64,000 bases of DNA from Gaiellaceae bacterium (GTDB lineage Bacteria > Actinomycetota > Thermoleophilia > Gaiellales > Gaiellaceae): NCBI GenBank assembly GCA_046262635.1, contig JBHEMK010000067.1, forward strand, positions 8,152 to 72,151. The letters run 5' to 3'. This document shows, piece after piece, positions 1 through 25,022 of this stretch (the first letter of the stretch is position 1; each line of letters opens with the position of its first letter). The notes beneath the pieces are model-generated. The model made no database searches and had not been told where the DNA came from. It saw only the letters and a list, made by a program, of their open reading frames with translations. The position numbers were made by a program, and so were the translations under genes.

Positions 1-641
1 ACTGTCTTCGAGCCCTCCGCGTAGTACGAGCGCAGCCCGACGTTGACAAATCCCCAGGGGAGCTCGAAGGAGAGCTCGACCGTGAGACGGCTGCAGTCGT
101 CGTAGCTGCCGCGGACGGCGTAGATCGTCGCGCCGTAGGCGGCCGTGGCGACGAGTTTCTCGCGCTCCAGATCGAACGGGCAGAAAACGACGGCGTCAAG
201 GCCCTCGACGGCGGCGCGGGCCGCGACAGCGTTCGCGAGGTTGCCGGTCGACGAGCACGAGATCGTCTCGTAGCCGAGCTCCTGCGCCTTCGCGCACGCC
301 ACGGCCACGACGCGATCCTTGAAGGAGTGGGTCGGGTTCGCGGTGTCGAGCTTCAGGTACAGCTCGGCAAGCCCGAGCTCGGCCGCGAGCCGCGGTGCCG
401 GGACGAGGGGAGTCAGGCCCGGTGCGAGCCTCGGCTCGTCCGGCGGCGCGACGGGCAGCAGCGGGGCGTAGCGCCAGAGCGACGGCGGACCGGCCTCGAT
501 GCGCTCGCGCGAGACCGTTCGGCGGAGCTCGTCGAGGTCGTAGACGGGGTCGAGCGGCCCGAAACAGCGCGGGCAGGCGCCGACGCCCTCGAGGGAGAGA
601 TCGTGGCCGCAGCGGCGGCAGGAGAGGTGGGTCGCGGGCAA
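1..641 (-). CDS. ThrC-family PLP enzyme with N-terminal Cys4 zinc ribbon; only the 5' part is present (C-terminus lies left of the window); SAM-riboswitch controlled, MetM-like candidate
   Basis: Own translation of the minus strand from TTG 641 (GGAGG 6 nt upstream): LPATHLSCRRCGH..ACPRCFGPLDPVYDL..LKLDTANPTHSFKDRVVAVA..SCSSTGNLANAVAA. By eye it is roughly half identical to the 23817..25001 paralogue. It is absent from the ORF track because it runs off the edge. Confidence 0.85.
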   Translation of the reverse strand, partial: MPATHLSCRRCGHDLSLEGVGACPRCFGPLDPVYDLDELRRTVSRERIEAGPPSLWRYAPLLPVAPPDEPRLAPGLTPLVPAPRLAAELGLAELYLKLDTANPTHSFKDRVVAVACAKAQELGYETISCSSTGNLANAVAARAAVEGLDAVVFCPFDLEREKLVATAAYGATIYAVRGSYDDCSRLTVELSFELPWGFVNVGLRSYYAEGSKT

Positions 642-663
642 GGATGGCCTCCTTCGGTCGGTC

Positions 664-776
664 TCGCTCTACATCGTCCGAGCGGTACAGCTCGGCCGGC
701 TTGGCACCTTGCGTGGTACGCAGGTTGCCGAGGCGTCAGCGGGCCGGTTCCCTCAGCCTCTCTTGATGCGGAGCGG
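664..776 (-). promoter_or_regulatory. SAM-I (S-box) riboswitch aptamer in the 5' leader of the ThrC-like gene
   Basis: Minus-strand RNA CAUCAAGAGAGGCUGAGGGAACCGGCCCGCUGACGCCUCGGCAACCUGCGUACCACGCAAGGUGCCAAGCCGGCCGAGCUGUACCGCUCGGACGAUG carries the S-box blocks AUCAAGAG, GAGGGA, GGCCC, UGA, GGCAACC and AAGGUGCCAA. P1 closes as GCUCcGCAUC...GAUGuaGAGC. The aptamer ends about 25 nt before the GGAGG/TTG start. Confidence 0.9.
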
Positions 777-799
777 GCACGCCCGCCCTCTGCAGCCGC

Positions 800-807
800 A
801 GTATAAA
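800..807. promoter_or_regulatory. AT-rich patch with overlapping divergent -10-like hexamers (TATACT on minus for the riboswitch transcript, TATAAA on plus for proA)
   Basis: gcaGTATAAAgtaaag is the only AT-rich island in the 641..927 spacer. No good -35 was found on either side. Confidence 0.3.
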
Positions 808-926
808 GTAAAGCGACCATCGCCGCAGGGACGACAGAGAGACTGGTCGCGCTGGTCGAGGGCGAGGCCGAGGCGGCGATCGCCACTCTCCCGCTTCTCG
901 ACGAGCAGGCGATCGAGCAGGGGCTC

Positions 927-2096
927 GTGCTCGCGGCCCGCTTGCTGCGTGAGCGACGCGGGGAACTGCTGGAGGCGAATGAGCTCGACGTCGCCGCGGC
1001 GCGGCGGCGGCTCGATGCGGGGGCGCTTGATCGGCTCCGCCTCGACGACGGGCGACTCGAGGCGATCGCCCTAGGGCTCGAGGCGACGGCGGCGCTCGAG
1101 CCGCTTGAGCGCGAGGCGGGCTCGTGGCGGCTGCCGAACGGCCTCGAGGTCTCAGAACGGCGGGTTCCGATCGGCGTCGTCGGCGCGAACTTCGAGGCCC
1201 GGCCGAACGTCGCCGCGGATGTCGCCGCGCAGGTGCTGAAGAGCGGCAATGCGGTCGTGCTCCGCACCGGCGGCGCCGCTCTCGGCACAGTCACGGCGCT
1301 CGTCGACCGTGCGCTCAGACCCGCCCTCGACGAGACCGGGCTGCCGGGCTCCGCGATCGGGCTCGTCCGCTCTGCGGACCGTGCCGGCGCGGAGGCGCTC
1401 GTCTCGCTCCCGCAGCTGATCCCGCTCGTGATCCTGCGCGGCAGCGGGCCCTCGACGGCGGCCCTTGCCCGCACCGCTGCGCTGAGCGGCGTCAGGACGC
1501 TCGCCCACGCGGAGGGCGGCGGTGTCCTCTACGTCCATTCGGGGGCATCCTTCGAGCGGCTCGTGGCCGTCGCACGCGCGAGCCTCGATCGGCTCGGTGT
1601 CTGCAACAGGCTGAATCTCGTGCTCGCCGACCGGGCGGCGACCGGGCTCACCTCTGCCCTGCTCGATCTCCTCTCGGAGCAGGGCCTCGCGGTGCGGGGC
1701 ACGGAGCGCGCGCTCGCCTGCCGCGGCGTCCTGCCGCTCGACGAGCGGCTTGGCCACGAGTGGGCGAGCGATCCCGAGCGCGTGGCGACCGTCAGCCTCG
1801 ATCTCGTCGACAGCCTCGACGAGGCGGTGCGGATCGCCAACGAGGAGACCGCCGGGCTGGCCGCGGCGATCGTGACCGAGGACGAGCGCGCCGCGCAGCG
1901 GTTCCTCGACGGCTACCGCGGCACCGCCGCGTTCTGGAACGCCACCACCCGCTTCACCGACGGCTTCGAGCTGCTGGGTACTCCGGAGACGGGAGTCAAC
2001 GTCGACCGGGCCCCGGGCCCGCGCGGGCCGGTCACCTACCGGGACCTCTGCCTGCGTCAGTACCGGGTCGTCGGCGACGGCACCCAGCGCAGATGA
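927..2096 (+). CDS. proA: gamma-glutamyl phosphate reductase
   Basis: ORF track 389 aa with RRVPIGVVGANFEARPNV, catalytic-Cys context GVCNRLNLVL and NATTRFTDG. It has an ATGA overlap with proB. The conserved N-terminus continues upstream of GTG 927 in the same frame (see finding). Confidence 0.9.
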   Translation: MLAARLLRERRGELLEANELDVAAARRRLDAGALDRLRLDDGRLEAIALGLEATAALEPLEREAGSWRLPNGLEVSERRVPIGVVGANFEARPNVAADVAAQVLKSGNAVVLRTGGAALGTVTALVDRALRPALDETGLPGSAIGLVRSADRAGAEALVSLPQLIPLVILRGSGPSTAALARTAALSGVRTLAHAEGGGVLYVHSGASFERLVAVARASLDRLGVCNRLNLVLADRAATGLTSALLDLLSEQGLAVRGTERALACRGVLPLDERLGHEWASDPERVATVSLDLVDSLDEAVRIANEETAGLAAAIVTEDERAAQRFLDGYRGTAAFWNATTRFTDGFELLGTPETGVNVDRAPGPRGPVTYRDLCLRQYRVVGDGTQRR

Positions 2097-3205
2097 TCGT
2101 CGTCGTCAAGCTCGGCTCGACGCTCGTGGCCGACGCGAACGGGCGCGTCCGGCGCTCGCTGCTGACCGCCCGCGCCGCGGAGATCGGGCAGCTCGCGCGC
2201 GGAGGCGAGCGCGTCTGCGTCGTCTCGTCCGGCGCGATCGCGCTCGGGCTCCCTCGGCTTCGTCTCGCGCGGCGGCCACGGTCGACGCCGCGGCTCCAGG
2301 CCGCCTCCGCGCTCGGGCAGGTCCGCCTGCAGCAGGCGTGGGACTCCGCGCTCCGGGCCGAGAGGCTCGAGGCGGCGCAGATCCTGCTCTCGGCCGCCGA
2401 CCTCGCCGAGCGCTCCAGCTACGTCAACCTCCGCAACGTCTTCGAGGCGCTCCTGCGCGCGGGCGTCGTGCCGGTCGTGAACGAGAACGACGCGACTGCG
2501 ACGGATGAGATCACCTTCGGCGACAACGATGCACTCGCCGCGCAGGTTGCGGTCTTGACGCGGGCGCGGCTTCTCGTCCTCCTGACCGAGGTCGACGGCG
2601 TCTACACGGCCCACCCCGCCGCGCCGGGAGCGACGCCGCTCCCGGACGGCGACGCGGCGGCTGGGGCGCTCGTCGGCCCCGGCAGCGCGCTTGGGCGCGG
2701 GGGGATGGCGAGCAAGATCGCCGCCGCCCGGCTCGCAGCCGCCGCCGGAATCCCGACGGTGATCGCCTCCGGACGCGGTCCTGACGTCTTAGGCGCGCTC
2801 GTCGCGGGGGAGCGCCGGGGGACGCGGTTCGCAGCCCGCCCGGCGACCGGTGCGAGCGCGTTCAGGCTCTGGCTCCGCTATGCGAAGCCGGCCGCGGGTC
2901 GGATCGTCGTCGACGAGGGGGCCCGCAGCGCCCTGCTCGCCCACGGGCGCAGCCTGCTCGCAGTCGGTGTCGTCCGCTGCGAGGGGCCGTTCGTCCCAGG
3001 CGACGCGGTTGAGCTGGTCGCGCAGGACGGCACCGTCTTTGCGAAGGGGATCGCGAGCGCGGGCGCTGCGGAACTGCCGGACCGCCCCCGCGGCCTGGAG
3101 GTTGTCCACCGCGACCGGCTCGTCCTCCTCGACCCGGGGACCGGTGCGTCCCCTGGAGACGCGGGCGTGCAACCCGCTCAGGCTCGCAGTCTACGGGCCA
3201 CGTGA
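2093..3205 (+). CDS. proB: glutamate 5-kinase with C-terminal PUA domain
   Basis: ATG 2093 lies inside the artefactually long ORF 1124..3205. Motifs: [43 protein letters not shown]. Length is 370 aa. Confidence 0.9.
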
Positions 3206-4942
3206 GCCGCCGGCGCCTGGGGCGACGCGATCTCCGACCGGCGCGGGTGGGCGGGTGATGGCGCCGTCTGAGGCGGAGGAGACGAGCGCCGCGTACTTGC
3301 CGAGCACGCCCGCGCGATAGCGCGCCGGCGGCGGCCTCCACTCCGCGAGCCGTCGCTCCAGCTCGCCCTCCGGCACCTCGACGCGCAGCTCCCTGCCCTC
3401 GACGTCGATCGCGACGGTGTCGCCTTCCTCGACCGCCGCGAGCGGCCCGCGGCGCGCCGCCTCGGGTGCGATGTGGCCGACCATCAACCCGTGCGTGGCA
3501 CCGGAGAAGCGGCCGTCCGTGACGAGCGCGACCGCATCGCCGAGGCCCGCCCCGACGAGCGCGCCGGTCACGTGGAGCATCTCGCGCATCCCGGGCCCGC
3601 CGGCCGGCCCCTCGTAGCGGATCACGATCACGTCGCCGGGCTCGATCGAGCCCGCGGTGACGGCGGCGAAGCACTCCTCCTCGGAGTCGAAGACCCGCGC
3701 CGGGCCGCGATGGAGGAGCCGCTCGTGGCCGACGAGCTTGACGACGGAGCCCTCCGGCGCGAGGTTGCCGCGGAGGATGGCCAGGCCTCCCGTCGCCTTC
3801 AGCGGCCGTCCGGCCGGCCTGATCACCTCCTGACCGGGCGTCTCCCGTGCCGCGGCGGCGATTCCGCCGAGAGTGCGGCCGTCGACGTTGAGCGTGCCCT
3901 CGTGGACGAGGCCCGCCTCCACGAGCTCCCGTGCGACGAGCGCGAGCCCGCCGGCGCGATGGAGGTCGGTGGCGACGAAGCGGCCGGCCGGCTTGAGGTC
4001 GGCGAGGACCGGCGTCCGCGAGGCGATCTCGTCGAAGTCGTCGAGCTCGAGCGCGATGTCGAGCTCGCGCGCGATCGCGAGCAGGTGCAGGACGCCGTTC
4101 GTCGAGCCGCCGGTCGCGACGATCGCCGTGATCGCATTCTCGATCGCCTCGCGCGTGAGGATCGCGGAGGTGCGGACGTCGTCGCGGACGAGATCGAGCA
4201 CGATCCGGCCCGCCTGCTCGGCCGCGCCCGCCTTCGCCGGGTCGAGCGCCGGCACGTCGTTCAGTCCAGCCGGGCTGACTCCGAGAAACTCGAGCGCGGT
4301 GGACATCGTGTTCGCGGTGAACTGTCCGCCGCAGGCGCCGGCGCCGGGGCAGGCGACCCCCTCCAGCTCGTGCACGTCCTCGGCGCTCATCGTCCCGGCC
4401 GCGTGCGCACCCACCGCCTCGAAGACGTCCTGGATCGTCACGTTGCGGCCGCGGAAGCGGCCGGGGGCGATCGAGCCGCTGTAGAGAACGAGTGCGGGCA
4501 GGTCCAGGCGCGCGAGGGCCATCACGGCGGCGGGAATCGTCTTGTCGCAGCCGACGAGGCAGACGAGCCCGTCGAACAGATGGCCGCGCGCGACGAGCTC
4601 GATCGAGTCTGCGATCACCTCGCGCGAGACGAGCGAGGCGCGCATCCCGTCGCTGCCCATCGAGACGCCGTCCGAGACCGCGATCGTGTTGAACTCCATC
4701 GGCGTGCCCCCGGCAGCGCGGATGCCGCGCTTCACGTCCTGCGCGAGCCTACGCTGGTTCAGGTTGCACGGCATCGTCTCGATCCACGTCGTCGCCACAC
4801 CGACGAGCGGGCGCGCGAGGTCGTCGTCGGAGAAGCCGGTGCCCTTCAGCATCGCCCGGGCCGCGGCGCGCCCGACGCCGTCGGTGAGCGCCGCGCTGAC
4901 GCGCTTGGCGGGATCGGACGGGCGGTCGTACGGGTCGCTCAT
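3191..4942 (-). CDS. ilvD: dihydroxy-acid dehydratase
   Basis: 583 aa with [26 protein letters not shown] and GGPGMREML. It has an ATGA overlap with the thrB stop. Its 3' end overlaps the proB 3' end by 15 nt (convergent). Confidence 0.95.
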
Positions 4943-5754
4943 AGCGGGCCGGCTCCTTTTGACGAGATCGCGAGAGGGCGGACGTTGGCTCCGGGAAAGC
5001 GCTCGGCGAGCTCGGCGGCGCAGGCCTCCGAGGCGCCGGGCCTGGCCCAGACGATCACCGTCGGGCCGGAGCCCGAGAGCGTCGCGGCGACCGCGTCGGC
5101 GGGGAGCGGGTCGCGCACAGCGGTGAGCACCGGCGCGTTCGCCGCGCGGTACGGCTCGTGCAGGCGGTCGTCGGCCGCGGCGGCGAAGAGCTCGGTCGAG
5201 CCGCCCGCGAGGCCGGCGCCGAGCAGCGCGGCGCGAGCGACCGTGTGGGCCGCGTCGGCAAACGGCACCTGCTCCGGCAGCGCCGCGCGCGCGGCCCGCG
5301 TTTCCACCAGCCCGGGCGGGACCACTGCGACCGGCTCCGCCGGGGCGCCGTCGGCGATGCGGGCGATCCGCCCGGCCCAGGTCAGGCAGACGCCGCCGGT
5401 CAGCGCGGCCGCAAGGTTGTCCGGATGCCCTTCGAGGTCGAGCCCGAGCCCGAGCAGCTCCTCCGCGTGGGCGTCGCGGCCGGAGGCAATCGCGCCGGCG
5501 ATGAGACCGAGGGCGATCGTGGCTGCGCTCGAGCCGAGGCCGCGCTGGCGTGGGATCCGGTCGGTGAAGGCGAAGCTTCGGTGACCGACCGCCGCGAGCC
5601 GCGCGAACGCCTGCACGGCGAGGTGATCGGGGTCGGCACCGCCGCCGTCCTCCCGGACCTCGAGCTCGTTCCAGAGGTCGAGCGCCGCCGCCGCGCAGTC
5701 GAAGCCCGGACCGAGGTTCGCAGTCGTCGCCGGCGCGTGCACGCGGATCGTCAC
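4939..5754 (-). CDS. thrB: homoserine kinase
   Basis: GTG 5754 (GTGA overlap with the thrC stop) inside long ORF 4939..6546. Motifs: [15 protein letters not shown] and the GHMP motif [14 protein letters not shown]. Confidence 0.9.
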
Positions 5755-6689
5755 GCCCCCCGCTCCGCCAGCAGGTCGACCGCCGCGGGATCCTTCAGCC
5801 CATGGCCGGTGAGCACGCACACCACACGCTCGCCGAGCGCCGCCGCCCCGCGCGCCAGGCCCGCGATCGGCGCCGCCGAGGCAGGCTCGCAGAAGAGGCC
5901 TTCCTCGCGCGCGAGCGAGCGCCAGGCGGCCGCGATTTCGTCGTCGCTGACCGAGATCACCGAGCCGCCCGAGCGGGCGACCGCCACATCGACCTCGCGT
6001 CGGTGGACGGGAACCGCGATCCGGATCGCCGAGGCGACTGTCTCTGGGCGGGTCTGAGCCTCGACCGGATGCAGGCGCGGAAGCGAGCCGGTCTCGAGAA
6101 AGCCCTTCGCGTAGGCGGCCGTGTTGCCGCCGCCGCCGTAGGGGAGGGCGAGCACGTCCGGCGCCCCGCCGAGTTGCTCGATGATCTCGAACGCAGCCGT
6201 CTTCTGGCCCTCGAGCCGGTTCGGGTTGGTCGAATTGACGAACGTGAAGTGCTCCGCCTCGGCCAGCTCGAGGGCGGCAGAGAACGCGTCCTCGAACGAG
6301 CCACGGATCTCGAGCAGCCGCGCGCCGGCGGCACGCACCTGAACGAGCTTCGAGGCGGCCACGGCGCCGGCCGGGTAGGCGACGATCGCCTCGATGCCGG
6401 CCCGGGCGGCGTAGGCGGCGGCCGACGCCGCGGTGTTGCCGGTCGAGGCGCAGACGACGCCCCGCGCGCCCTCCTCGAGCGCCTTCGCGACCGCGACGGC
6501 CATGCCGCGGTCCTTGAACGAGCCGGTCGGATTCGCGCCCTCCCACTTCAGCCAGATCTCGACGCCGAGCCGAGCCGAGATGCGCCCGGCGCGCACGAGC
6601 GGGGTCGAGCCCTCGCCGAGCGTGACGAGCGGTGTCTTCTGCGAGACCGGCAGCGAGTCGCGGTAGCGCTCGAGCAGGGGGACGTGCAC
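5751..6689 (-). CDS. thrC: threonine synthase (short canonical form)
   Basis: 312 aa with [17 protein letters not shown] (PLP Lys) and [14 protein letters not shown]. It sits in a hom-thrC-thrB arrangement. Confidence 0.9.
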
Positions 6690-6691
6690 CG

Positions 6692-7981
6692 TCAGATCCC
6701 TCGCTCGGCGATCACGCGGAGGGAATCGGGGCGGTGGCGCACCTCGGCCAGCTGCTCGATCGCGTCGAGCGCAGCCTCCATGCGTCCCGCCGGGGCCGCG
6801 TGCGTCACGAGGTCGAGGCCCGCGCTGCCGTCTAGGAGGCTCTGGGTCAGGCTGGCGATCGAGACGCCCTCCTCGGCGAAGCGCTCGGCCACCTGTGCGA
6901 GCACGCCGGGGCGGTCTGCGACCTCGATGTGGATGTAGAACGGCGAGGCGAGCTCGCCCGGCGGCAGCCGGTCGAGTGTGCGCCAGCAGGCGTCGTTCTG
7001 GAGGAAGCCGGTTCCGGTTGTGCCGAGGACGCTGACCATGTCGGCGACGACGGCGGAGGCGGTCTCCGTCCCGCCCGCGCCCGGGCCCTCGAGCGTGATC
7101 TCCCGGATCGCGTCGCCCTGGAGCATCACGGCGTTGAACGGGCCCACGACGGAGGCAAGCGGGTGGTGCCGGTCGACGAGCGCCGGCCCGACGCGGACGT
7201 CGACGGCGCCGTTGACGAGCGTCGCCGCGCCGACGAGGCGCACGACGGCGCCGAGCCCGCGCGCAGCGGCCATGTGCTCGGCCCTGAGACCCTCGATCCC
7301 TTGATAGGTGACATCGTCGAGCTCGGCGCGCGCGCCGAAGGCGACTGTCGCGAGGATCGCCATCTTGGCGGCCGCGTCGGCGCCGGAGACGTCATCGGTC
7401 GGGTCTGCCTCCGCGTAACCGAGCAGCTGCGCCTCCGCGAGTGCGTCCTCGTAGCCTGCGCCGTCCTCCATCCGGGTGAGGATGAAGTTCGTCGTCCCGT
7501 TGACGATCCCGAGCACCCGGTGCACGTTGGTCACGACGAGCGACTCGCGCAGGACCTTGATCACCGGGATCGCCCCGCAGACCGACGCCTCGAAGCGCAG
7601 CTGGACGCCTCCGGCCGACGCCGCCTCGAAGAGATCGGCGCTGCGCCGTGCGAGCAGCTGCTTGTTCGCCGAGACGACCGGCTTCCCCGCGCGCAGCAGG
7701 TCGAGGACGTAGCCGCCCGTCGGGTCGGTGCCGCCCATCACCTCCGCCACGAGCGCGATCGACGGATCCTCGAGGATCGACGCGAAGTCGCTCGTGAGGA
7801 CGCCGTCGGCGGGCTGGAAGGCGCGCTCTTTCGCGAGATCGCGCACGAGCGCCCGCACGACGCGGAGGCGGTGACCGGTGGCGCGCTCGATCTCCTCGGC
7901 GCCGTCGATCAGGAGACGGTTGACGGCCGCGCCGACCGTGCCGTAGCCGAGCAGCGCGACCGGAACGTCAACCGACGCCAT
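6692..7981 (-). CDS. hom: homoserine dehydrogenase
   Basis: ATG 7981 (MASVDVPVALLGYGTVGAAV Rossmann start) inside ORF 6692..8323. It has a C-terminal ACT-like part. Length is 429 aa. Confidence 0.9.
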   Translation of the reverse strand: MASVDVPVALLGYGTVGAAVNRLLIDGAEEIERATGHRLRVVRALVRDLAKERAFQPADGVLTSDFASILEDPSIALVAEVMGGTDPTGGYVLDLLRAGKPVVSANKQLLARRSADLFEAASAGGVQLRFEASVCGAIPVIKVLRESLVVTNVHRVLGIVNGTTNFILTRMEDGAGYEDALAEAQLLGYAEADPTDDVSGADAAAKMAILATVAFGARAELDDVTYQGIEGLRAEHMAAARGLGAVVRLVGAATLVNGAVDVRVGPALVDRHHPLASVVGPFNAVMLQGDAIREITLEGPGAGGTETASAVVADMVSVLGTTGTGFLQNDACWRTLDRLPPGELASPFYIHIEVADRPGVLAQVAERFAEEGVSIASLTQSLLDGSAGLDLVTHAAPAGRMEAALDAIEQLAEVRHRPDSLRVIAERGI

Positions 7982-7983
7982 GC

Positions 7984-8994
7984 TCAGCCGACGCCATGCG
8001 CCTCCGCGCCGAGGAGCCCTTCTTTGCCGGCGAGGGCGCGGAGCTCGACACCGACCTGCTCGAGCTGGCCGCCCGCATTCTGCCGCCGCAGCTCCTCGAA
8101 GCGCGGCCGCCCCGCCTCGTCGTCCTCGAACAGCTCGCGCGCGAACGCGCCGCTGCGGATCTCCTCGAGCAGCTTCGTCATGTTCTCGCGCACATGATCG
8201 TCGACGATGCGAGGCCCGCGCGAGAGGTCCCCGTACTCGGCGACGTCGGAGATCGAGTAGCGCATGTACTCGAAACCGCCCTCGTAGATCAGGTCGACGA
8301 TCAGCTTCAGCTCGTTCAGGCACTCGTAGTAGGCGATCTCGGGCTGGTAGCCGGCCTCGACGAGTGTCTCGAAGCCGGCCTTGATCAGGGCCGTGACACC
8401 GCCGCAGAGGACCGCCTGCTCGCCGAAGAGGTCGCTCTCGGTCTCCTCCGCAAAGGTCGTCTCGAGCATGCCGACGCGGCCGCAGCCGATCCCGGTGCCG
8501 TAGGCGAGCGCGAGCTCGAGCGCGCGCCCGCTCGCATCCTGGTGGACAGCGACGAGCCCGGGCGTGCCGGCACCGCTCTTGAACAGCTCCCGGACGCGGT
8601 GGCCCGGGGCCTTCGGCGCCACCATGACGACGTCGTGCGCGGCGGCCGGCGTGATCCGGCCGAAGTGGATGTTGAGCCCATGGGCAAAGAGCAGTGCTGC
8701 GTCGGGCTCGAGGTTGGGCTCGATCTCCTGCTCGTAGACGCCCTTCTGCAGGTGGTCCGGAACGAGAATCGCCACGACCTGGGCCCCGCGGGTCGCCTCG
8801 GCGACGGTGCGGACCGCGAGGCCCGCGTCGTCGGCCGCCTCGCGGGAGCGACTCTCCGGCCGCAGGCCGACCTCGACCTCGACGCCCGAGTCCCGCAGGT
8901 TGAGTGCGTGCGCGTGGCCCTGGCTGCCGTAGCCGACGACCGCGACCTTTCCTGAGAGCAGGTCGAGATTGCCTTCGCGGTGGATCGTGGCCAT
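7984..8994 (-). CDS. ilvC: ketol-acid reductoisomerase
   Basis: 336 aa with [28 protein letters not shown] lies upstream. Confidence 0.95.
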
Positions 8995-9013
8995 TTGGAG
9001 CTCCTTTCGATGC

Positions 9014-9532
9014 TCAGCGCAGCACGAGCTGGCTGCGGCGGACGCTGGTGGGGGAGGAGGAGGCGCGGCGGAGGCCGATGCGCCCTGTGCGGACGAGCTC
9101 CTTCACGCCGTGCGGGCGGACGAGCTCCTCGAAGGAGTCGATCTCCTCGGGGGTCCCGGCGAGCTCGAAGACGATCGCGTCGGGGCCGAGGTCGGCGATG
9201 CGTGCGCTGAAGACGTCAGCGAGCGCCATCAGCTCGGTTCGCCGCGTGGGCGGGGCGGAGACCTTGATCAGGGCGAGCTCACGCTCGATCGACTCGCCCG
9301 CGGCGAGCTGGGTGATGCGCAGCACGTTCACGAGCTTGTGCATCTGCTTCTCGATCTGCTCGAGCGAGCGGTCGTCGCAGTCGACCTGGAGGGTGATCCG
9401 GGAGATGTCCGCGCGCTCGGTCGGCCCGACCGCGAGGCTCTCGATGTTGAATCCGCGCCGGGCGAACATGTTCGAGATCCGGGCGAGCGCACCGGGCTTG
9501 TTCTCGACGAGCACGGAGAGCGTGTGCTTCAC
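9014..9532 (-). CDS. ilvN: acetolactate synthase small (regulatory) subunit
   Basis: 172 aa with the ACT domain [31 protein letters not shown]. Confidence 0.95.
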
Positions 9533-9686
9533 GTGCGTGGCCGCCTTGCGCTCCTGCGCCCTGGACGGGCGCTCGGCCAGAGGCCGAGGCCGCCGATACG
9601 GGCTGAGCCCCCCGGCGCCCGGACTGCGCCGGACGTACCGCGCGGCGGCGGCTCCGACGACGAGCGCCGGCGGGTCGTGACGAGGC

Positions 9687-11405
9687 TCACGTCGAGACCA
9701 CCTCGCTCTCGCCCGGATACTCGACCAGGTCGAGCGCAGCGGCGCCCGCGGGAATCATCGGGAAGCAGTGCTCATGGGCATCGACGCGGCAGTCGACGAC
9801 GGCGGTCCGGCCGCACCCGATCGCCTCACCGAGCGTCTCCTCGAGGTCGTCCTCCCGGTCGACGACGAAGCCGCGCGCACCGTAGGCCTCGGCGAGGGCG
9901 GCGTAGTCCGGCAGGTGGTGCGTGAGCTCGATCTGGGAAAAGCGCTCCTCGAAGAACATGTCCTGCCACTGACGAACCATACCGAGGTGGCCGTTGTTGA
10001 CGATCACGACGACGATGGGGAGGTGCTCGAGCACCGAGGTCGCGAGCTCCTGCTGGGTCATCTGGAAGCAGCCGTCGCCGTCGACGCAGATCACCGTCGC
10101 GTCGGGGCGGGCAGCCTTGGCGCCGATCGCGGCCGGGAGGCCGTAGCCCATGGTCCCGAGGCCGCCCGAGGTGATGAACGAGCGCGGCCGGTCGCAGAGC
10201 AGGTACTGCATCGCCCACATCTGGTGCTGGCCGACCCCGGTCGTCCAGATCACGTCGTCTCGGCCGGCGGTCAGCGCCTGCAGCGTCTCCAGCACCGGCT
10301 GCGGCTTCATCGGGCCGCCGCCACCGCCGTAGCGCAGCGGGAACTCCTCGCGCCACCGGCGGATCTGGGCGAGCCATGGCTCGGTGGCGTCCGGCCGGTG
10401 CACCTCGCGGAGCTCGCGGGCGAGGTCGGCCAGCACGGGCTTCAGCGGCCCGACGACGGGAACGTCCGCGTGGCGGAGTTTGTCGATCTCGGCGGAGTCG
10501 ACATCGAGGTGGATCACCGTCGCGCCAGCCGCGAAGGACGCGAGCTTACCCGTGACCCGGTCGTCGAAGCGTGCGCCGACGGCCACGAGCACGTCACACT
10601 TGTTGATCGCGTAGTTCGACCACTTCGGGCCGTGCATCCCCGGCCAGCCGAAGTGCAGCTCGTGCGTCTCGGGGAAGCCGCTCTTGGCCATCAGGGTCGT
10701 CACCACGGGCAGGCGCCCGCTCTCGGCGAGCTCGAGTAGCTCGGGACACGCATCGGCGTTCAGCACACCGCCGCCGACGTAGAGAACCGGGCGCTCGGCC
10801 GAGGCGATCCGCTTCGCCGCCTCGCGGATCTGGCGGGGGTGCCCTCGCCGCGGCGGTCGCCAGCCGGGCAGGTCGACGGTGTCCGGATACCCGAAATCGA
10901 GCTCGGCCTCCTGCACGTCGCGCGGGATGTCGACGAGGACCGGTCCGCAACGGCCGGTGCTCGCAACGTGGAAGGCGGCCTTCATGATGTGGGGCAGGTC
11001 GGCGACGTCCTTCACGAGCCACGAGTGCTTGACGACCGGGATGGTGATCCCGGTGATGTCGCACTCCTGGAACGCATCCGTGCCGATCAGGTGCGAGCGA
11101 ACCTGGCCGGTGATGCAGACGAGCGGCGTCGAATCCATCCACGCGTCGGCGATCGGGGTGACGAGGTTCGTCGCTCCGGGGCCGGAGGTGGCGAGCGCGA
11201 CCCCGATGTTGCCGGAGGCGCGCGCGTAGCCCTCGGCCATGTGGCCGGCTCCCTGCTCGTGGCGGGCGAGCACGTGCCGGACGGTCGTGCCGCGGGCGAA
11301 GGCGTCGTAGGTCGGCAGGATCGCCCCGCCCGGAAGACCGAAGACGACGTCGACGTCCTCCGCCTCGAGCGAGCGAAGGACGGCGTCGGCCCCGTTCATC
11401 CTCAT
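9687..11405 (-). CDS. ilvB: acetolactate synthase large subunit (TPP enzyme)
   Basis: ATG 11405 (GGGAGG upstream, ATGA overlap with the upstream gene) inside ORF 9687..11690. Motifs: MRMNGADAVLRSLEAEDVDVVFGLPGG, GGLGTMGYGLPAAIGAK, VDGDGCFQM. Confidence 0.95.
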   Translation of the reverse strand: MRMNGADAVLRSLEAEDVDVVFGLPGGAILPTYDAFARGTTVRHVLARHEQGAGHMAEGYARASGNIGVALATSGPGATNLVTPIADAWMDSTPLVCITGQVRSHLIGTDAFQECDITGITIPVVKHSWLVKDVADLPHIMKAAFHVASTGRCGPVLVDIPRDVQEAELDFGYPDTVDLPGWRPPRRGHPRQIREAAKRIASAERPVLYVGGGVLNADACPELLELAESGRLPVVTTLMAKSGFPETHELHFGWPGMHGPKWSNYAINKCDVLVAVGARFDDRVTGKLASFAAGATVIHLDVDSAEIDKLRHADVPVVGPLKPVLADLARELREVHRPDATEPWLAQIRRWREEFPLRYGGGGGPMKPQPVLETLQALTAGRDDVIWTTGVGQHQMWAMQYLLCDRPRSFITSGGLGTMGYGLPAAIGAKAARPDATVICVDGDGCFQMTQQELATSVLEHLPIVVVIVNNGHLGMVRQWQDMFFEERFSQIELTHHLPDYAALAEAYGARGFVVDREDDLEETLGEAIGCGRTAVVDCRVDAHEHCFPMIPAGAAALDLVEYPGESEVVST

Positions 11406-12298
11406 ACGGCCTCCCGGTGGAACTCGGCGTTCGACCAGGCGAGCGGAAGCTGCGCCAGCACCGTGTCGGCGTGACCTCGGGTCGACGGCGGTTTCGCGCG
11501 CGCGTGCACTTGGCCGACCGCCGAGGAGAGCGTCGCGGCGGCGCGGCGCTCGCCGAGCCCCTCGCCGACCATCAGCGCGGCCGCAAGCAGCATCGAGCTC
11601 GGGTCGGCGACGCCCTGGCCGGCGATGTCGTCGGCGGCTCCGTGCGTTGCGCCGAAGACGCTCGGGCCGCCCGGGGCCAGGCGGCCCCACGCGGCGGTCC
11701 GGTTCTGCGCGAGGCAGGCGGCCAGGTCGCCCGCGGTCGTCGCCAGCTCGGGCGAAACGACGAGGACGTCGAATCGATGCGGCGCGAAGACGAGCGCACG
11801 CACCGCCTCGGCGGTTCGGAGCCGCTCCACGTCGAGCCCGTCGTGACGCGCCTCGAGCGCCGCCGCGCGGCCGTTGTCGACGTCCACGAGCGAGATCCGC
11901 GCGCGGCTCTCCCGCGCGAGGTCGAAGCTCCGCTCCAGCGTCCAGTCCCAGGCGTCGGCCCTGAGCGGTGCTACCACCGAGAGCTCCGCGGACCGGTCGA
12001 AGCGAACGCGGACGATGGAGGCGCGAAGGTCGAGCTCCTCCTCGAGCGTCTCGAGCTGGGCGCCGTCCTCCGAGGCGACGAGCACTGCGTCGGCGCCGAG
12101 GACCGCTCGCCGGGACGAGCTGGGGAACGGGTGGCCGAACCGCATGATTGCGTCGGCACCGAACGGTACGTGCAGCTCGTCGACGGCGAAGCCGTGCAGC
12201 CGCGAGGCGGCGCCGACTGCCCGGCTCGCCTGAGCCATCACCTCCGGGCCGATGCCGTGCCGGGAGAGGCAGGCGACGGTGTAAACGGTGCGTCTCAC
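11402..12298 (-). CDS. isopropylmalate/isocitrate dehydrogenase-fold protein, short (298 aa) and apparently lacking the catalytic residues
   Basis: GTG 12298 (GTGA overlap with the leuA stop) inside ORF 11402..13021. It retains RHGIGPEV and GATHGAADDIAGQGVADPSSMLLAAALM. DKANV is replaced by DVDNG and GDILSD by GDLAAC. No VRExTEGxY block is visible. Confidence 0.75.
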   Translation of the reverse strand: MRRTVYTVACLSRHGIGPEVMAQASRAVGAASRLHGFAVDELHVPFGADAIMRFGHPFPSSSRRAVLGADAVLVASEDGAQLETLEEELDLRASIVRVRFDRSAELSVVAPLRADAWDWTLERSFDLARESRARISLVDVDNGRAAALEARHDGLDVERLRTAEAVRALVFAPHRFDVLVVSPELATTAGDLAACLAQNRTAAWGRLAPGGPSVFGATHGAADDIAGQGVADPSSMLLAAALMVGEGLGERRAAATLSSAVGQVHARAKPPSTRGHADTVLAQLPLAWSNAEFHREAV

Positions 12299-13440
12299 GC
12301 GGTCACCTCGGCGAAGAGCTCGTGCAGGCCAATGGGGCGACCCGTGTCGGCCAGCGCCTTGAACCGGCGAAACGCCGCCGTCAGCTCCTCGTGGCTGAGC
12401 TCGATTCCGGCCTCGTTGCAGGCGCGGGCGAACGCGTGCCGGCCAGAGTGCTTGCCGAGCGGCAGCGTCATCGTGACACCGAGCTCCCCGGGATCCATGA
12501 TCTGGTACGTCGAGAGATCCTTGAGCAGCCCGTCCTGGTGGATGCCGGCCTCGTGCGCGAAGGCGTTGGCGCCGACGATCGCTTTGTTGCGCGGCACGGC
12601 GTAGCCGCTCAGCCGCTCGACGATCCGCGAGGCTGCGCCGATCTGCGACGCGTCGATCCCCGTCTCGGCGCGCAGGGCCGTGCGCCGCACCCGAAGCGCC
12701 ATCACGATCTCCTCGAGCGCGGCGTTGCCCGCCCGCTCGCCGATGCCGTTGATCGTGCACTCGATCTGACCGACGCCCGCCTCGATCGCCGCGAGCGAGT
12801 TCGCAACCGCGAGACCGAGGTCGTCGTGGCAGTGCGCCGAGAGCGTCACACCGGCGAGCTCGGGGCAGAGCCGGCGGACCTCGTTGAGGAAGCCGACGTA
12901 CTCCACCGGCAGCGCGTAGCCGACCGTGTCGGGCAGATTGACCACCGTTGCGCCCGCCCGGACGGCTGCACGGCAAACCCTCGCGACGAAGGCCGGATCG
13001 GAGCGGGTGGCGTCCTCGCACGAGAACTCGACTTCAGCCACGCGCGCCACCGCGGCGGCGACCGAGCGGGAGGCTTGCTCCACCACCTCGTCGGGCTCGA
13101 GCTGCAGCTTCTTCTCCATGTGCACCGGGCTCGTTGCGATGAAGAGGTGGATCCGCGACCGGTGGGCGTCGGCCAGCGCCTCGGCTCCGGCGGCGATGTC
13201 TTCCGGCCGCGTTCGGCAGAGGCTGGCGACGGTCGCGCGCCCGGCGGTGCGTGCGACGGCTCGCACGCCCTCGAAGTCGCCGGGCGAGGACACGGCGAAT
13301 CCGGCCTCGATCACGTCGACTCCGAGACGCTCGAGCTGCTCCGCGATCTCGGCCTTCTCGTGCGGGAGCAGCGCGATTCCCGGCGATTGCTCGCCGTCGC
13401 GAAGCGTCGTATCGAAGATGGCGATCCTGCGCGAACTCAC
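12295..13440 (-). CDS. leuA: 2-isopropylmalate synthase family enzyme, short form without the C-terminal LeuA-dimer/regulatory domain
   Basis: 381 aa with IFDTTLRDGEQSPG, HCHDDLGLAVANSLAA and GIGERAGNAALEE. AAGGAGG lies 5 nt before GTG 13440. Confidence 0.9.
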   Translation of the reverse strand: MSSRRIAIFDTTLRDGEQSPGIALLPHEKAEIAEQLERLGVDVIEAGFAVSSPGDFEGVRAVARTAGRATVASLCRTRPEDIAAGAEALADAHRSRIHLFIATSPVHMEKKLQLEPDEVVEQASRSVAAAVARVAEVEFSCEDATRSDPAFVARVCRAAVRAGATVVNLPDTVGYALPVEYVGFLNEVRRLCPELAGVTLSAHCHDDLGLAVANSLAAIEAGVGQIECTINGIGERAGNAALEEIVMALRVRRTALRAETGIDASQIGAASRIVERLSGYAVPRNKAIVGANAFAHEAGIHQDGLLKDLSTYQIMDPGELGVTMTLPLGKHSGRHAFARACNEAGIELSHEELTAAFRRFKALADTGRPIGLHELFAEVTA

Positions 13441-13526
13441 TGAATCCTCCTTGCGTCCCGAGTGCGGGCGGACGGGTGGCGGCGACGGTGGGGTGTGCGC
13501 CTTTCAGCGCGTGTTCGCGTCTCCCC

Positions 13527-13616
13527 CTAGCGGGGGAGAATCGAGAGGATAAGCGCGATCGACCCGGACACGGAGGTCCGGGCGGAGAGCGAGCCGCGGT
13601 TCGAGCCTGTCCTCAT
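13527..13616 (-). CDS. candidate 29-codon Ile/Leu-rich leader peptide of the leu-ilv-thr operon
   Basis: Own translation: ATG 13616 .. TAG 13527 gives MRTGSNRGSLSARTSVSGSIALILSILPR. There are 3 Ile and 3 Leu codons in the last 10, including the rare AT-ending ATT and CTT. The stop sits in the loop of hairpin TCTCCCCC-GCTA-GGGGGAGA. Confidence 0.45.
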   Translation of the reverse strand: MRTGSNRGSLSARTSVSGSIALILSILPR

Positions 13617-13625
13617 CGTGCCGCC

Positions 13626-13654
13626 AGTGTGGCTGAGGGCTTGCACCTTGTCAA
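13626..13654 (-). promoter_or_regulatory. candidate promoter of the leu-ilv-thr operon (TTGACA - 17 nt - CACACT)
   Basis: Minus strand cTTGACAaggtgcaagccctcagcCACACTggcggcacgATG. The -10 ends 9 nt before the leader-peptide ATG, which implies a leaderless or near-leaderless small ORF. Confidence 0.35.
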
Positions 13655-13707
13655 GTCGCTGCCAACGCGACAGATGCCCGACGCCACCCGGGATCGGCCG
13701 GCCTCGT

Positions 13708-13737
13708 TTGACAGCGGCGGTCGTGGGGCGCGATAGT
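13708..13737 (+). promoter_or_regulatory. candidate promoter of the sugar ABC cluster (TTGACA - 18 nt - GATAGT)
   Basis: cgtTTGACAgcggcggtcgtggggcgcGATAGTccctgcgGTG. The -10 ends 7 nt before GTG 13745, so the mRNA is probably leaderless. Confidence 0.35.
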
Positions 13738-13744
13738 CCCTGCG

Positions 13745-14499
<755 letters not shown>

Positions 14500-14503
<4 letters not shown>

Positions 14504-15495
14504 CACGGCCGACGATGACAGACGTCGCCGAGGTGGCCGGCGTCAGCCTGAAGACGGTCTCGCGGGTCGTGAACGGCGAGCCGCGCGTCACGCCCGCGAC
14601 GGCCGAGCGGGTCCGGGGGGCGATCGCCCGGCTCGGCTACCGCCGCAACGAGGCCGCGCGGTCGCTCCGGCAGGGCCGCGTCTCGCGCACGCTCGGGCTC
14701 GTGATCGAGGATGTCGCGAATCCGTTCTACTCGGCGATCACCCGAGGGGTCGAGGAGGAGACGCGGGCCCACGGCTTCCTCGTCATCGCGGGCTCCTCGG
14801 ACGAGGATCCCGAGCGGGAGCGTGCGCTGCTCCAGCTCCTCTGCGAGCGCCGCGTCGACGGCCTGCTCGTCGTTCCGGCCGGGGGGGACCACCGCTACCT
14901 TCTGAGCGACCTCGAGCACGGTACTCCTGCCGTCTTCATCGACCGTCCAGCCGGCCGGATCGACGCCGACGTGATCCTGCTCGACAACGTCGGCGGCGCG
15001 CGGAGCGCGGTCGCGCACCTGCTCGCCCACGGGCACCGGCGGATCGCGATCGTCGCTGACACGCCGACGATCGCGACGGCGGAGGAGCGCTACCAGGGCT
15101 ATCTCGAGGCTCTCGACGCGGTCGGGATCGCGACCGATCCGGGGCTCGTCCGCCTCGGCTCGCACGACAGCGAGGGCGCCGAGGCCGCAGTCCTCGAGCT
15201 GCTCGACCTGCCGGAGCCTCCGACTGCGATCTTCACCGGCAACAATCGCGTCACCCTCGGCGCCCTCCGTGCGCTGGGCGGGGGCGTCGGCGTCGCCCTG
15301 GTCGGTTTCGACGACCTGGAGCTTGCCGAGTACGTGATGCCGCCGCTGACGGTGATCTCCTACGACGCGTCCGAGCTCGGGCGCCGCGCCGCCCGCCTGC
15401 TCTGGCAGCGCCTCTCGGGTGACCGTCGGCCGCCGCAGCGCATCATCCTGCCCACGACGCTCGTTGCGCGCGGCTCCGGAGAGATCGCCGCGTGA
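14500..15495 (+). CDS. LacI-family transcriptional regulator
   Basis: 331 aa with HTH MTDVAEVAGVSLKTVSRVVNG plus a periplasmic-binding-like sugar domain. It has a GTGA overlap with the ATPase gene. Confidence 0.9.
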
Positions 15496-16493
15496 TCCCC
15501 CTGCGCTTGCCGCCGAACCAGCTTCAGCGCTTCTACCGCGGTGGTGAGGCGATCGCCCGGTTCCGCGGGACCGAGCCGGTCGGCGAGTACGCGCCGGAGG
15601 ACTGGGTCGGATCGACGACCACGAGCTTCGGCGAGCCCGAGGCCGGGTTGTCCCGCCTCGAGGACGGCGTCACGGTGAGGGCTGCGGTCGCCGCCGGCCC
15701 GGAGGAGCTGCTCGGGCCCGGGCGAACGGAGACCGGGCTGCTCGTGAAGCTGCTTGATGCAGGCGAGCGCCTGCCCGTGCACTGCCACCCGGACCGCTCC
15801 TTTGCCGCACGACACCTCGGCTCGAGCCACGGCAAGACGGAAGCCTGGGTGATCGTCGAGGCTCGGGGCAAGCGGCCGGTCGTCGCGCTCGGCTTCAGCC
15901 GGCCGGTGGACGCGGGCACGCTCGCCGGGTGGGTCGAGCGGCAGGACGTGGAGGCCCTGCTCGGCTCGCTGAACGAGCTGCCCGTGGCCGCGGGCGACGC
16001 CATCTTCGTCCCGGCGGGGGTGCCGCATGCGATCGGCGAGGGAATCCTGCTCGTCGAGCTGCAGGAGCCGTCCGACCTGTCCGTCTTGCTCGAGTGGGAG
16101 GGATTTGCGGTCGACGGGCGAGCGGCGGGCCACCTCGGGCTCGGCTTCGAGACCGCGCTCGCGGCCGTCGACCGGTCGGCGTGGACCTGCGAGCGGCTCA
16201 CCCCGCTGCTCCGCTCGACTGCGGGCGGTGGCGAGCGGATTCCGCTGCTGCCGCCCGCGGCAGCGCCGTTCTTCGGGGGTGAGCGGCTCCGGCCGGCGCC
16301 CCGGCTCGAGCTCGAGCCGTCGTTCTCGATCGTCGTCGTGCTCTCGGGCTCGGGGCGCATCGATTGCGCTGACGGCGGGCTCGACCTCGCTGGCGGGCAG
16401 ACCCTGCTCGTTCCTTACGGGGCCGGGCGGTGCACGCTCACCGGCGCACTGGACGCGATCCGCTGCCTGCCGCCCGACCGAGCCGGTGGCTGA
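15492..16493 (+). CDS. manA: class I mannose-6-phosphate isomerase (cupin)
   Basis: 333 aa with LLVKLLDAGERLPVHCHP, KTEAWVIV, AGDAIFVPAGVPHAIG and ELQEPSD. Confidence 0.85.
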   Translation: MIPLRLPPNQLQRFYRGGEAIARFRGTEPVGEYAPEDWVGSTTTSFGEPEAGLSRLEDGVTVRAAVAAGPEELLGPGRTETGLLVKLLDAGERLPVHCHPDRSFAARHLGSSHGKTEAWVIVEARGKRPVVALGFSRPVDAGTLAGWVERQDVEALLGSLNELPVAAGDAIFVPAGVPHAIGEGILLVELQEPSDLSVLLEWEGFAVDGRAAGHLGLGFETALAAVDRSAWTCERLTPLLRSTAGGGERIPLLPPAAAPFFGGERLRPAPRLELEPSFSIVVVLSGSGRIDCADGGLDLAGGQTLLVPYGAGRCTLTGALDAIRCLPPDRAGG

Positions 16494-17535
16494 GACTCCG
16501 ACGGGCCTCGGCACCCCCCAGCCGCAGGAGCGTGCGGCCCGGCTCGCGTTCCTCGTTCTGACCCGGTTCTGGATCCTCTTCTTTCTGATCGGTCTCATCC
16601 TCTACTTCTCGGTCGCAACGCCCGGCCACGCCTTCTTCCAGGCGGCGAACTTCAAGAACATCGCGCTCGATACCTCCGAGGTGATCCTGCTCGCGATCGG
16701 GGAGACGTTCATCATCGTCACCGCGGGTATCGATCTTTCCGTCGGGGGCATCCTCGTCTTCTCCGGCGTCGCGGGTGGCCTCGTGATGCTGAAGCTCTCG
16801 GGGACCCACGCCCAGACGTCGAACCTCCAGTACCCGCACGACGTGCGTGGGATCCTGATCGGCGGCCTCGTGACGTTGCTTGCCGGCTCGGGCTGGGGCT
16901 TCCTCAACGGCGTCCTCGTGACGCGGCTGAAGCTGCCCCCGTTCATCGTCACCCTGGGCACGCTCGGGATGGCCTTCGGGGCCGCCGACCTGCTGACCGG
17001 CGGCACGAACCTCTCGTCGGTGCCGACGCGGTTCCAGGATCGCTTCGGAAACGGCACCGTCCTCGGGATCTACGTGCCCGTACTGCTCGCGGCCTTCATC
17101 GTCCTCGTCGCCTATGTCACCCTCCGCCTGACCCGCTTCGGCCTGTATACCGCGGCGATCGGCTCGAACGAGGACGGCGCGCGACGCGCCGGCGTCAACG
17201 TCGACTGGCACCTGATCAAGGTCTACACCCTTACCGGATTTCTCTGCGGCGTCGCCGGGCTGATCGACCTCGCCCGGTTTGGGACCGAGAACCTGTCGGC
17301 GCACAACACGGACAACCTGAACGCGATTGCGGCCGTCGTGATCGGGGGGACAAGCCTCTTCGGGGGTGTCGGCACCATTCTCGGCACGGTCGTCGGCGCG
17401 TTCATCCCGACCGTCCTCCAGAACGGCTTCGTCATCAACGGGATCGATCCGTTCTGGCAGGAAGTCCTGGTCGGGGCAACCATCATCGTCGCCGTCTACA
17501 TCGACCAGGTGCGTCGGCGGCGATGGAGCACGTAG
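16486..17535 (+). CDS. sugar ABC transporter permease (ribose/xylose-type, BPD_transp_2)
   Basis: GTG 16486 (8-nt overlap with manA) inside ORF 16027..17535. The protein is multi-TM with TAGIDLSVGG and VIGGTSLFGG. Confidence 0.85.
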   Translation: MAETPTGLGTPQPQERAARLAFLVLTRFWILFFLIGLILYFSVATPGHAFFQAANFKNIALDTSEVILLAIGETFIIVTAGIDLSVGGILVFSGVAGGLVMLKLSGTHAQTSNLQYPHDVRGILIGGLVTLLAGSGWGFLNGVLVTRLKLPPFIVTLGTLGMAFGAADLLTGGTNLSSVPTRFQDRFGNGTVLGIYVPVLLAAFIVLVAYVTLRLTRFGLYTAAIGSNEDGARRAGVNVDWHLIKVYTLTGFLCGVAGLIDLARFGTENLSAHNTDNLNAIAAVVIGGTSLFGGVGTILGTVVGAFIPTVLQNGFVINGIDPFWQEVLVGATIIVAVYIDQVRRRRWST

Positions 17536-17555
17536 GAGACGAAAGGAGCAGAGCG

Positions 17556-18542: not shown

Positions 18543-18550
18543 CCCGACAG

Positions 18551-18584
18551 ACCGAGGGGGTGGGCCCGGGCCCGCCCCCTCGGT
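18551..18584 (+). terminator. strong GC hairpin after the binding-protein gene
   Basis: ACCGAGGGGG-tgggcccgggcccg-CCCCCTCGGT has a 10-bp perfect stem, 9 nt after the stop. There is no U tract. Confidence 0.55.
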
Positions 18585-18811
18585 CCGAGCGATAACCCCC
18601 CTCGCCAGCGCCTGGGTCCGGTCCGACGACGGCCGAGGAGGTGCTGCGCGTCCGCGCAAGGCGGGCGCGGACCAGGGGTCGGCGCCGGATCCTCCCGGCC
18701 GCCGCGGCGCGAACGGGTGTCGACCGAGCGGTCGACCGCGCGGGCCGCGTCGGCCGGTGGCTCGACTCGCTTTAGAAAGGACAGATATCTTTCCCCAAGC
18801 CGGATCCGGCC

Positions 18812-18840
18812 TTGCTCCGTCCGGCCAGAGCCTCTATGCT
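18812..18840 (+). promoter_or_regulatory. candidate gltB promoter (TTGCTC - 17 nt - TATGCT)
   Basis: ccTTGCTCcgtccggccagagcctcTATGCTgagg. An AT-rich inverted repeat GAAAG-N9-CTTTC at 18775..18793 lies just upstream. Confidence 0.35.
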
Positions 18841-18907
18841 GAGGTGGTGGACTGCGTGCGCACAGCCCTGATTTCACCCTTGCTCGGCGTCGCGCGCGCG
18901 GACGCGC

Positions 18908-18947
18908 GCTAGCCGGCGGCCTCCCCTCCCCGCCCTCGCCGGCTAGC
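18908..18947 (+). promoter_or_regulatory. 5'-UTR hairpin with C-rich loop upstream of gltB; copy 1 of a repeated palindromic element
   Basis: GCTAGCCGGCG-gcctcccctccccgccct-CGCCGGCTAGC has an 11-bp perfect stem. It is preceded by ACGCGCG. Confidence 0.45.
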
Positions 18948-18973
18948 TGCTATTCCCCGGGCGGGCCCCTCGA

Positions 18974-25001: not shown

Positions 25002-25022
25002 CTCTCCGCCTCCGGTGAAGCT

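Follow-up and report, generated by a model that had tools for sequence, protein, structure and literature searches.

The question raised by the left edge of a 64,000-nt stretch of Gaiellaceae DNA (contig JBHEMK010000067.1; the whole stretch is referred to here as the window) is why a gene of the threonine synthase family, called the edge gene below, should stand behind a SAM-I riboswitch, an element associated with S-adenosylmethionine (SAM). The most probable answer, to which a probability of roughly 0.72 is assigned, is that a functional riboswitch would lower the level of a MetM-type enzyme when SAM is high, and that this enzyme would make homocysteine from O-phosphohomoserine and the thiocarboxylate of a sulfur-carrier protein. 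Such a reaction is known from Streptomyces albulus, in which the enzyme MetM and the carrier MetO convert O-phospho-L-homoserine to homocysteine, with Mec and MoeZ as accessory proteins (Hasebe et al., 2024, Appl Environ Microbiol 90:e01247-24, as summarized in PMC12172450 and GapMind 2026). According to the first of these summaries, the metM gene of S. albulus has an upstream SAM riboswitch (PMC12172450). The initial annotation of this DNA had pointed to a MetM/MetO system acting on O-phosphohomoserine in Streptomyces, and at the level of these summaries it was right. Its description of the edge gene as "not a classical met gene" has been overtaken, since a SAM-I riboswitch before metM has already been described in Streptomyces. 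Moreover, the 2021 reannotation of Streptomyces lividans places RF00162, the Rfam family of SAM-I riboswitches, before a two-gene "threonine biosynthesis" operon, SLIV_16930-SLIV_16925 (PMC8079986).

Results

The leader and the edge gene were read directly on the minus strand of positions 1..800, and the Rfam scan covered the whole window. The sole Rfam match in these 64 kb was RF00162 at 668..772 (-), with 74.7 bits against a gathering score of 44.4 and an E value of 1.1e-15 (cmscan). The match is full length (model positions 1-108 of 108, no truncation) and comprises helices P1-P4, of which P1 can be extended by 3 bp (CGC at 775..773 with GCG at 667..665), giving a long P1 of 775..765 with 675..665. 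The textbook S-box aptamer proposed earlier at 664..776 (-) is the same element plus this 3-bp extension, and the score check suggested along with it gave a value well over the gathering score. In all testable respects the aptamer belongs to RF00162, and it stands in the 5' leader of a MetM-clade gene, on the same strand and 26 nt before its TTG start codon.

Orthologues were collected in one scan of species-representative genomes, which gave 80 loci, all from Gaiellales/Thermoleophilia metagenome bins and with 74-89% amino acid identity to the edge protein. Seventy-four Gaiellales orthologue leaders align across the aptamer core, and RF00162 was rescored before three of the genes, with 75.0, 74.3 and 70.2 bits (loci L013, L001 and L021, respectively). 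The conservation of the 80 orthologues, the alignment of the 74 leaders and the three rescored matches together indicate that the pairing of riboswitch and gene is a stable trait of the Gaiellales lineage. The P4 hairpin is absent from the riboswitch in L021, L029, L034 and about 35 other loci (around 9885..9976), in which CCCGGACGGAUGUGUCGAGCG stands in place of CCGGCCGAGC...GCUCGGACGAUG and RF00162 still scores about 70 bits. The P4-less leaders form a natural series of SAM-I variants ahead of one and the same gene.

Conserved pairing continues on the 5' side of the aptamer core. Across the orthologous leaders the extended P1 is paired to 83.4%, compared with 21-50% when the partner strand is slid. 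This paired fraction was matched by 1 of 500 shuffles and the covariation score by none of 500, the margin being tiny (83.4% against a shuffled mean of 83.0%). Directly 5' of P1 there is a hairpin, GCGGG-CGUG-CCCGC (773..786 (-)), in which 82.8% of the cells pair in the 74 orthologues, against 46-67% with the partner slid; its covariation is weak, 117 of 500 shuffles reaching the same score. Both the 5' hairpin and the P1 extension are conserved, not covarying. The 3' arm of the hairpin (775..773) overlaps the P1 extension of 3-4 bp (CGCU with an invariant AGCG; columns 43-66 of the leader alignment), and its 5' arm, GAGCGGG, is nearly identical to the segment that follows P1, GAGCGAG, so the two could compete for one partner. 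A putative -10 hexamer of the leader promoter, TATACT, stands at 800..805 (-), and a TAnAnT block is kept at this position in the alignment of the 74 leaders. A consensus sigma-70 scan reported no promoter, so the -10 assignment is to be read as putative; transcription would probably start near 790-795. Just upstream of the leader, a terminator-like GC hairpin followed by TTTACTTTATACT at 812..826 (-) overlaps the putative -10 box. It is conserved in L001 (9810..9826 (+)) and may be part of the promoter or of the divergent proA side.

The edge gene occupies 1..641 (-) and runs past the window at position 1, with 213 codons of its 5' part inside; the orthologues are about 405 amino acids long. 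Its TTG start at 641..639 is backed by the orthologue alignment, in which the aligned starts are ATG (42), GTG (18) and TTG (7). The 213-residue product begins with a zinc ribbon formed by C8xxC11 and C23xxC26, which is followed by a Pfam PALP domain (108 bits) with the motif NPTHSFKDRVV that includes the Schiff-base lysine. These features agree with the earlier description of a pyridoxal 5'-phosphate (PLP) enzyme of the threonine synthase family with CxxC..CxxC and THSFKDR. Among the orthologues, the four cysteines are kept in 76 of 80 and NPTHSFKDR in 78 of 80.

The annotation of these proteins points to another explanation, namely that the edge gene encodes a second, genuine threonine synthase and that the riboswitch tunes the split of O-phosphohomoserine between threonine and methionine. 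The orthologues are annotated as threonine synthase in every database source, the best NCBIfam matches of the partial edge protein are threonine-synthase models, and full-length orthologues reach 233-235 bits on the thrC model TIGR00260, over its cutoff of 167.1. The closest solved structures are also threonine synthases (6cgq, E 8e-56), the PDB alignments beginning near residue 55. However, TIGR00260 accepts as well, with 270 bits, the carrier-linked MetM-like protein of Nonomuraea described below, and therefore the model cannot separate ThrC from MetM and the threonine synthase label is without weight. NCBIfam contains no MetM model, and threonine synthase is a frequent misannotation of MetM (GapMind 2026). 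Moreover, a canonical thrC already occupies the slot in hom-thrC-thrB at 5751..6689 (-), where the initial annotation had placed it; it reaches 234.9 bits on TIGR00260, has no zinc ribbon and is flanked by hom and a thrB-type GHMP kinase. The edge protein is 37-40% identical to this canonical ThrC, compared with 50-51% to the group linked with both riboswitch and carrier. It carries NPTHSFKDRVV where ThrCs have NPTGSFKxRG, and its extra N-terminal ribbon is not present in the solved ThrCs. Finally, a riboswitch that turns a threonine synthase off would push the substrate towards methionine at high SAM, contrary to feedback logic. The threonine synthase of plants is activated by SAM, which is the opposite of such a control. 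Taken together, a second threonine synthase is quite improbable.

The counterpart that joins riboswitch, enzyme and carrier in one locus comes from Nonomuraea gerenzanensis (NZ_LT559118, locus at 11.81 Mb; L081). In this genome RF00162 (68.7 bits) is followed by a zinc-ribbon ThrC-like gene and then, 25 nt downstream, by a carrier gene encoding a 91-residue ThiS-family protein that ends in GG and has Mycobacterium tuberculosis CysO as its best PDB match. The ThrC-like protein shares 50.7% identity with the Gaiellales orthologue and 50.5% with the window fragment, and it has the zinc ribbon and NPTHSFKDRVV in common with the edge protein. The best 120 homologues of the Nonomuraea protein all come from Streptosporangiales (mostly Nonomuraea and Streptosporangium), and no Streptomyces copy was found in the plasmid sequence collection. 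The record NZ_LT559118.1 itself is an 11.85-Mb chromosome filed as "plasmid I" with 10 annotated features.

A third ThrC-family gene had been announced for the window and was found at 23817..25001 (-). This paralogue, referred to as par2, encodes a zinc-ribbon protein of 394 amino acids with NPTHSFKDRLA, and it is 60% identical to the copy in L013. In a neighbor-joining tree (400 trimmed columns, 100 bootstraps), the Gaiellales edge type, four Streptosporangiales MetM-like proteins and par2 formed one clade with 100% bootstrap. Outside it were the canonical thrC, the zinc-ribbon ThrCs of a haloarchaeon, Chlorohelix and Azospirillum, and a mycobacterial plasmid PLP enzyme. The grouping of the three ThrC-family proteins of the window that had been proposed as a check thus sets edge type and par2 apart from canonical ThrC, the MetM side being represented by the carrier-linked Streptosporangiales proteins. 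In the first 213 residues, 12 positions are invariant in the edge type and the MetM-like proteins and absent from all outgroups, and the window protein has all 12; they include the His of NPT-H-SFKDR-VV, where ThrCs read Gly...G. Eight of the 12 residues are not common to par2. The clade and the residues invariant in the MetM-like group support the view, drawn earlier from SAM control, that the gene serves methionine or homocysteine synthesis. From this evidence it is concluded that the edge gene is probably the orthologue of riboswitch-linked metM; it appears to have every testable feature of the MetM family except the adjacency of metO.

Some other chemistry on the ThrC fold, for example that of a cysteate-synthase-like or O-phosphoserine-dependent sulfur enzyme, might also be considered. 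The cysteate synthase model TIGR03844 aligns from the N-terminal ribbon on, which indicates a shared architecture, but its scores are 61-72 bits against a cutoff of 324.9. SAM control and a clade that contains metM-metO-type loci point to homocysteine instead, and this alternative is barely credible. As assignments, the cysteate synthase and dehydratase families were rejected, all being far under their cutoffs.

The way in which the riboswitch would act may be judged in part from the short segment between the aptamer and the gene. The Shine-Dalgarno (SD) sequence GGAGG (648..652 (-)) is separated from the start codon by a 6-nt spacer, and an A/G-rich GGAG block is kept in the orthologous leaders. 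The aptamer end lies 15 nt from GGAGG and 26 nt from TTG; the distance of about 25 nt before GGAGG-N6-TTG that had been given earlier thus applies to the start codon and not to the SD sequence. The terminator scan found nothing between the aptamer and the start, the only minus-strand matches in this region being 826..812 (upstream of the aptamer) and 210..194 (within the coding sequence), in agreement with the earlier statement that no terminator-like element follows the aptamer. In the closest relatives a chorismate mutase gene begins 17 nt past the stop codon of the edge-type gene and is followed by leuB, while other relatives have leuC. Control at translation initiation is therefore most likely for the edge gene, because 26 nt without a terminator lead to the start codon and unrelated genes, chorismate mutase and leuB, follow within 17 nt in relatives; these genes should not be repressed by SAM. 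The Nonomuraea locus also favours this level of control, since its SD sequence, GAGGGAAGG, shares nucleotides with the 3' strand of P1 and the ATG codon comes 13 nt past the aptamer, as in a textbook translational switch. In contrast, the SD sequence of the window lies past P1 and no sequestering helix is evident.

Folding of the 74 leaders with P1 either enforced or forbidden was used to compare the equilibrium accessibility of the SD sequence and the start codon. No consistent occlusion was obtained with P1 closed: accessibility of the SD sequence fell in 13 leaders and rose in 24, and for the start codon the leaders divided 22 to 21. The translational control put forward in the initial annotation is thus plausible from the missing terminator, but it is not backed by the predicted folds. 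Rho-dependent termination or effects on mRNA decay are possible. An anti-start model of the leader was also considered, as the minimum free energy fold of the window pairs the G-rich leader strand GGGCGGGC with CCCGC just past the start codon. It was rejected because the complementarity was no better than to random 45-nt coding windows (80 orthologues; mean z +0.74; 2.5% in the best 5%).

The sulfur carrier was searched for with a hidden Markov model (HMM) built from 121 CysO/MetO-type sequences, which was run on the loci of the relatives and on the six frames of the window. Among the relatives' loci it matched only in L013, L015 and L024, where the carrier gene lies about 9 kb upstream of the edge-type gene and directly before a par2-type gene. 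The same order is found in L082, L083 and L084, three metagenome contigs with close carrier homologues, in which ThiS is followed by a PALP gene of 394-396 amino acids and then by an HxlR gene on the opposite strand. The carrier is thus directly upstream of the par2-type gene in all six contexts. No riboswitch was detected in L082, L083 or L084, nor at par2 of the window. In the window an HxlR-family regulator (23428..23820 (+); Pfam HxlR 104.5 bits) likewise lies just past the 3' end of par2 on the opposite strand. A carrier remnant was considered for the slot upstream of par2 (25002..25640, 640 nt) and rejected, as there was no ThiS HMM match and no Pfam match. On its plus strand, fragments of open reading frames (ORFs) resemble by eye pieces of an IclR-type regulator, possibly from a decayed or frameshifted gene. 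The best PDB match of the Gaiellales carrier is M. tuberculosis CysO (2.7e-15). Of the 121 carriers, which are homologues of L013 454..762, 57 end one residue past GG, about 50 are longer and 14 end in GG. Since most carriers have residues after GG, a JAMM protease of the Mec type presumably has to trim them routinely before they are thiocarboxylated. In Gaiellales, then, one member of the MetM clade has the riboswitch and another has the carrier gene beside it.

The canonical hom-thrC-thrB operon spans 4939..~8000. Homoserine dehydrogenase with an ACT domain is encoded by hom at 6692..8005 (-) (Homoserine_dh, NAD_binding_3 and ACT; start approximate), and homoserine kinase by thrB at 4939..5750 (-) (GHMP_kinases_N and GHMP_kinases_C; start approximate). 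The best NCBIfam match of thrB is TIGR00191 at 153.5 bits, just under the cutoff of 168.25, and with this sub-cutoff match the presence of thrB in the window, as claimed earlier, is borne out. A short MetE-type methionine synthase of 375 amino acids is encoded at 52167..53294 (+) (Meth_synt_2; NCBIfam PRK06520, 443 bits against 313), and no riboswitch was detected ahead of it. The region 927..33600 is an amino-acid biosynthesis supercluster on both strands with proA, proB, ilvD, thrB, thrC, hom, ilvC, ilvN, ilvB, leuA, gltB, argH, argG and further arg genes, together with an acetylglutamate-kinase-type gene and a semialdehyde dehydrogenase. Both MetM-clade genes sit inside the supercluster, and the setting is similar in relatives, with his, leu and ilv neighbours in L082-L084.

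Discussion

The pathway that is proposed for the edge gene would begin with O-phospho-L-homoserine supplied by thrB. The MetM-type enzyme would then replace the phosphate by the sulfur of a CysO/MetO-type protein thiocarboxylate, so that homocysteine is formed and the acyl-homoserine routes to methionine are bypassed. A MetE-type enzyme could then methylate homocysteine, and the product of 52167..53294 is a candidate consumer of homocysteine at this last step. When SAM is plentiful, the SAM-I riboswitch would lower the expression of the edge gene. The sulfur donor would have to be encoded outside the window, and in relatives it presumably corresponds to the carrier beside par2.

This scheme is close to the metM-metO locus of S. 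albulus as that locus is summarized in PMC12172450 and GapMind 2026. In both cases a SAM riboswitch stands ahead of a threonine-synthase homologue assigned to methionine biosynthesis, O-phosphohomoserine made by thrB would be the substrate, and the label is "threonine synthase". The loci differ in that metO accompanies metM in S. albulus, whereas in Gaiellales chorismate mutase and leuB, or else leuC, come after the gene and the carrier is found by the paralogue; moreover, one host is a Streptomyces and the other belongs to the Gaiellales (Thermoleophilia). The CysM-CysO-Mec system of M. tuberculosis (PDB 3dwg) also combines a PLP enzyme, an O-phospho amino acid and a CysO-type thiocarboxylate, but CysM has the CysK fold, uses O-phosphoserine, makes cysteine and is not under riboswitch control. 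With canonical threonine synthases (TIGR00260; PDB 6cgq, 2zsj, 1uim, 2d1f) the edge protein shares the fold, the SFKDR lysine core and the substrate. These enzymes differ from it in lacking the N-terminal four-cysteine ribbon and SAM riboswitch, in reading TGSFKDRG and not THSFKDRV, and in their hom-thrC-thrB context.

Several results weigh against the proposed role. The MetM assignment was made through Streptosporangiales stand-ins and not through the sequence of the characterized S. albulus MetM, and half of the edge gene lies within the window. Inside the MetM clade, the node joining the edge type with the MetM-like proteins has a neighbor-joining bootstrap of only 63%, and that joining the edge type with par2 37%. 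The inconsistent folding of the leaders belongs here as well. Other objections concern the sulfur donor. The initial annotation had expected a small ThiS/MoaD-like carrier directly downstream of the edge gene. The window ends inside the gene, and in the relatives this expectation failed: none of the 74 loci with at least 1.5 kb of downstream sequence has a ThiS-like ORF after the edge-type gene. In the six frames of the 64-kb window the carrier HMM found no ThiS-like ORF, and among those of its ORFs that were scanned with Pfam, in a window that is 64 kb of the genome, there was no ThiF/MoeZ, JAMM or rhodanese gene. Moreover, the carrier adjoins par2, which could be the working MetM.

These objections lead to a further explanation, in which the edge enzyme belongs to the MetM family and converts O-phosphohomoserine to homocysteine without a MetO carrier, using free sulfide or another donor, and par2 keeps the thiocarboxylate chemistry or does something else, as a result of subfunctionalization after duplication. 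It would account for a carrier that never adjoins the riboswitch-controlled copy and directly precedes par2 in all six other contexts, for a window that has par2 and no carrier in 64 kb, and for the 8 clade-specific positions at which edge type and par2 differ. However, CysO-type carriers can work in trans, which makes gene distance weak evidence; the split between riboswitch and carrier therefore does not refute the MetM reading. In Amycolatopsis, the work on BexX and CysO (PDB 4n6e) reportedly indicates that one carrier and one activating enzyme can serve several enzymes. A carrier-independent edge enzyme of this kind is consequently regarded as unlikely. Slightly more credit, still of a tentative kind, may be given to the broader idea that the metM-metO module of Gaiellales has been split between two paralogues, one with the riboswitch and without the carrier, the other with the carrier and an HxlR neighbour and without the riboswitch. 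The riboswitch copy may then be a carrier-independent O-phosphohomoserine sulfhydrylase, or par2 may have acquired a new sulfur-transfer reaction. If this is true, the genome of the window would be an extreme case of the split, as no carrier gene was found near either copy.

Thiocarboxylate-dependent synthesis of homocysteine by a SAM-controlled MetM remains the preferred interpretation of the edge gene. A SAM-I riboswitch ahead of a ThrC-like gene has been reported before from Streptomyces, and the present locus is a new example in a different actinobacterial class, from uncultured soil Gaiellales; it is unusual only in that riboswitch and carrier gene stand apart. The understanding of SAM-I riboswitches and of the MetM pathway is unchanged by these findings. 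With them, the known range of the O-phosphohomoserine route would come to include Gaiellales (Thermoleophilia), a lineage abundant in soil. MetM-type genes are labelled threonine synthase and accepted by the NCBIfam thrC model, so the methionine pathways of many uncultured actinobacteria look incomplete, and the conserved SAM riboswitch may serve as a cheap and independent flag by which MetM-type genes in metagenome bins can be told from true thrC. Moreover, the distribution of riboswitch and carrier between two paralogues offers a natural experiment on whether a dedicated carrier is indispensable for MetM enzymes.

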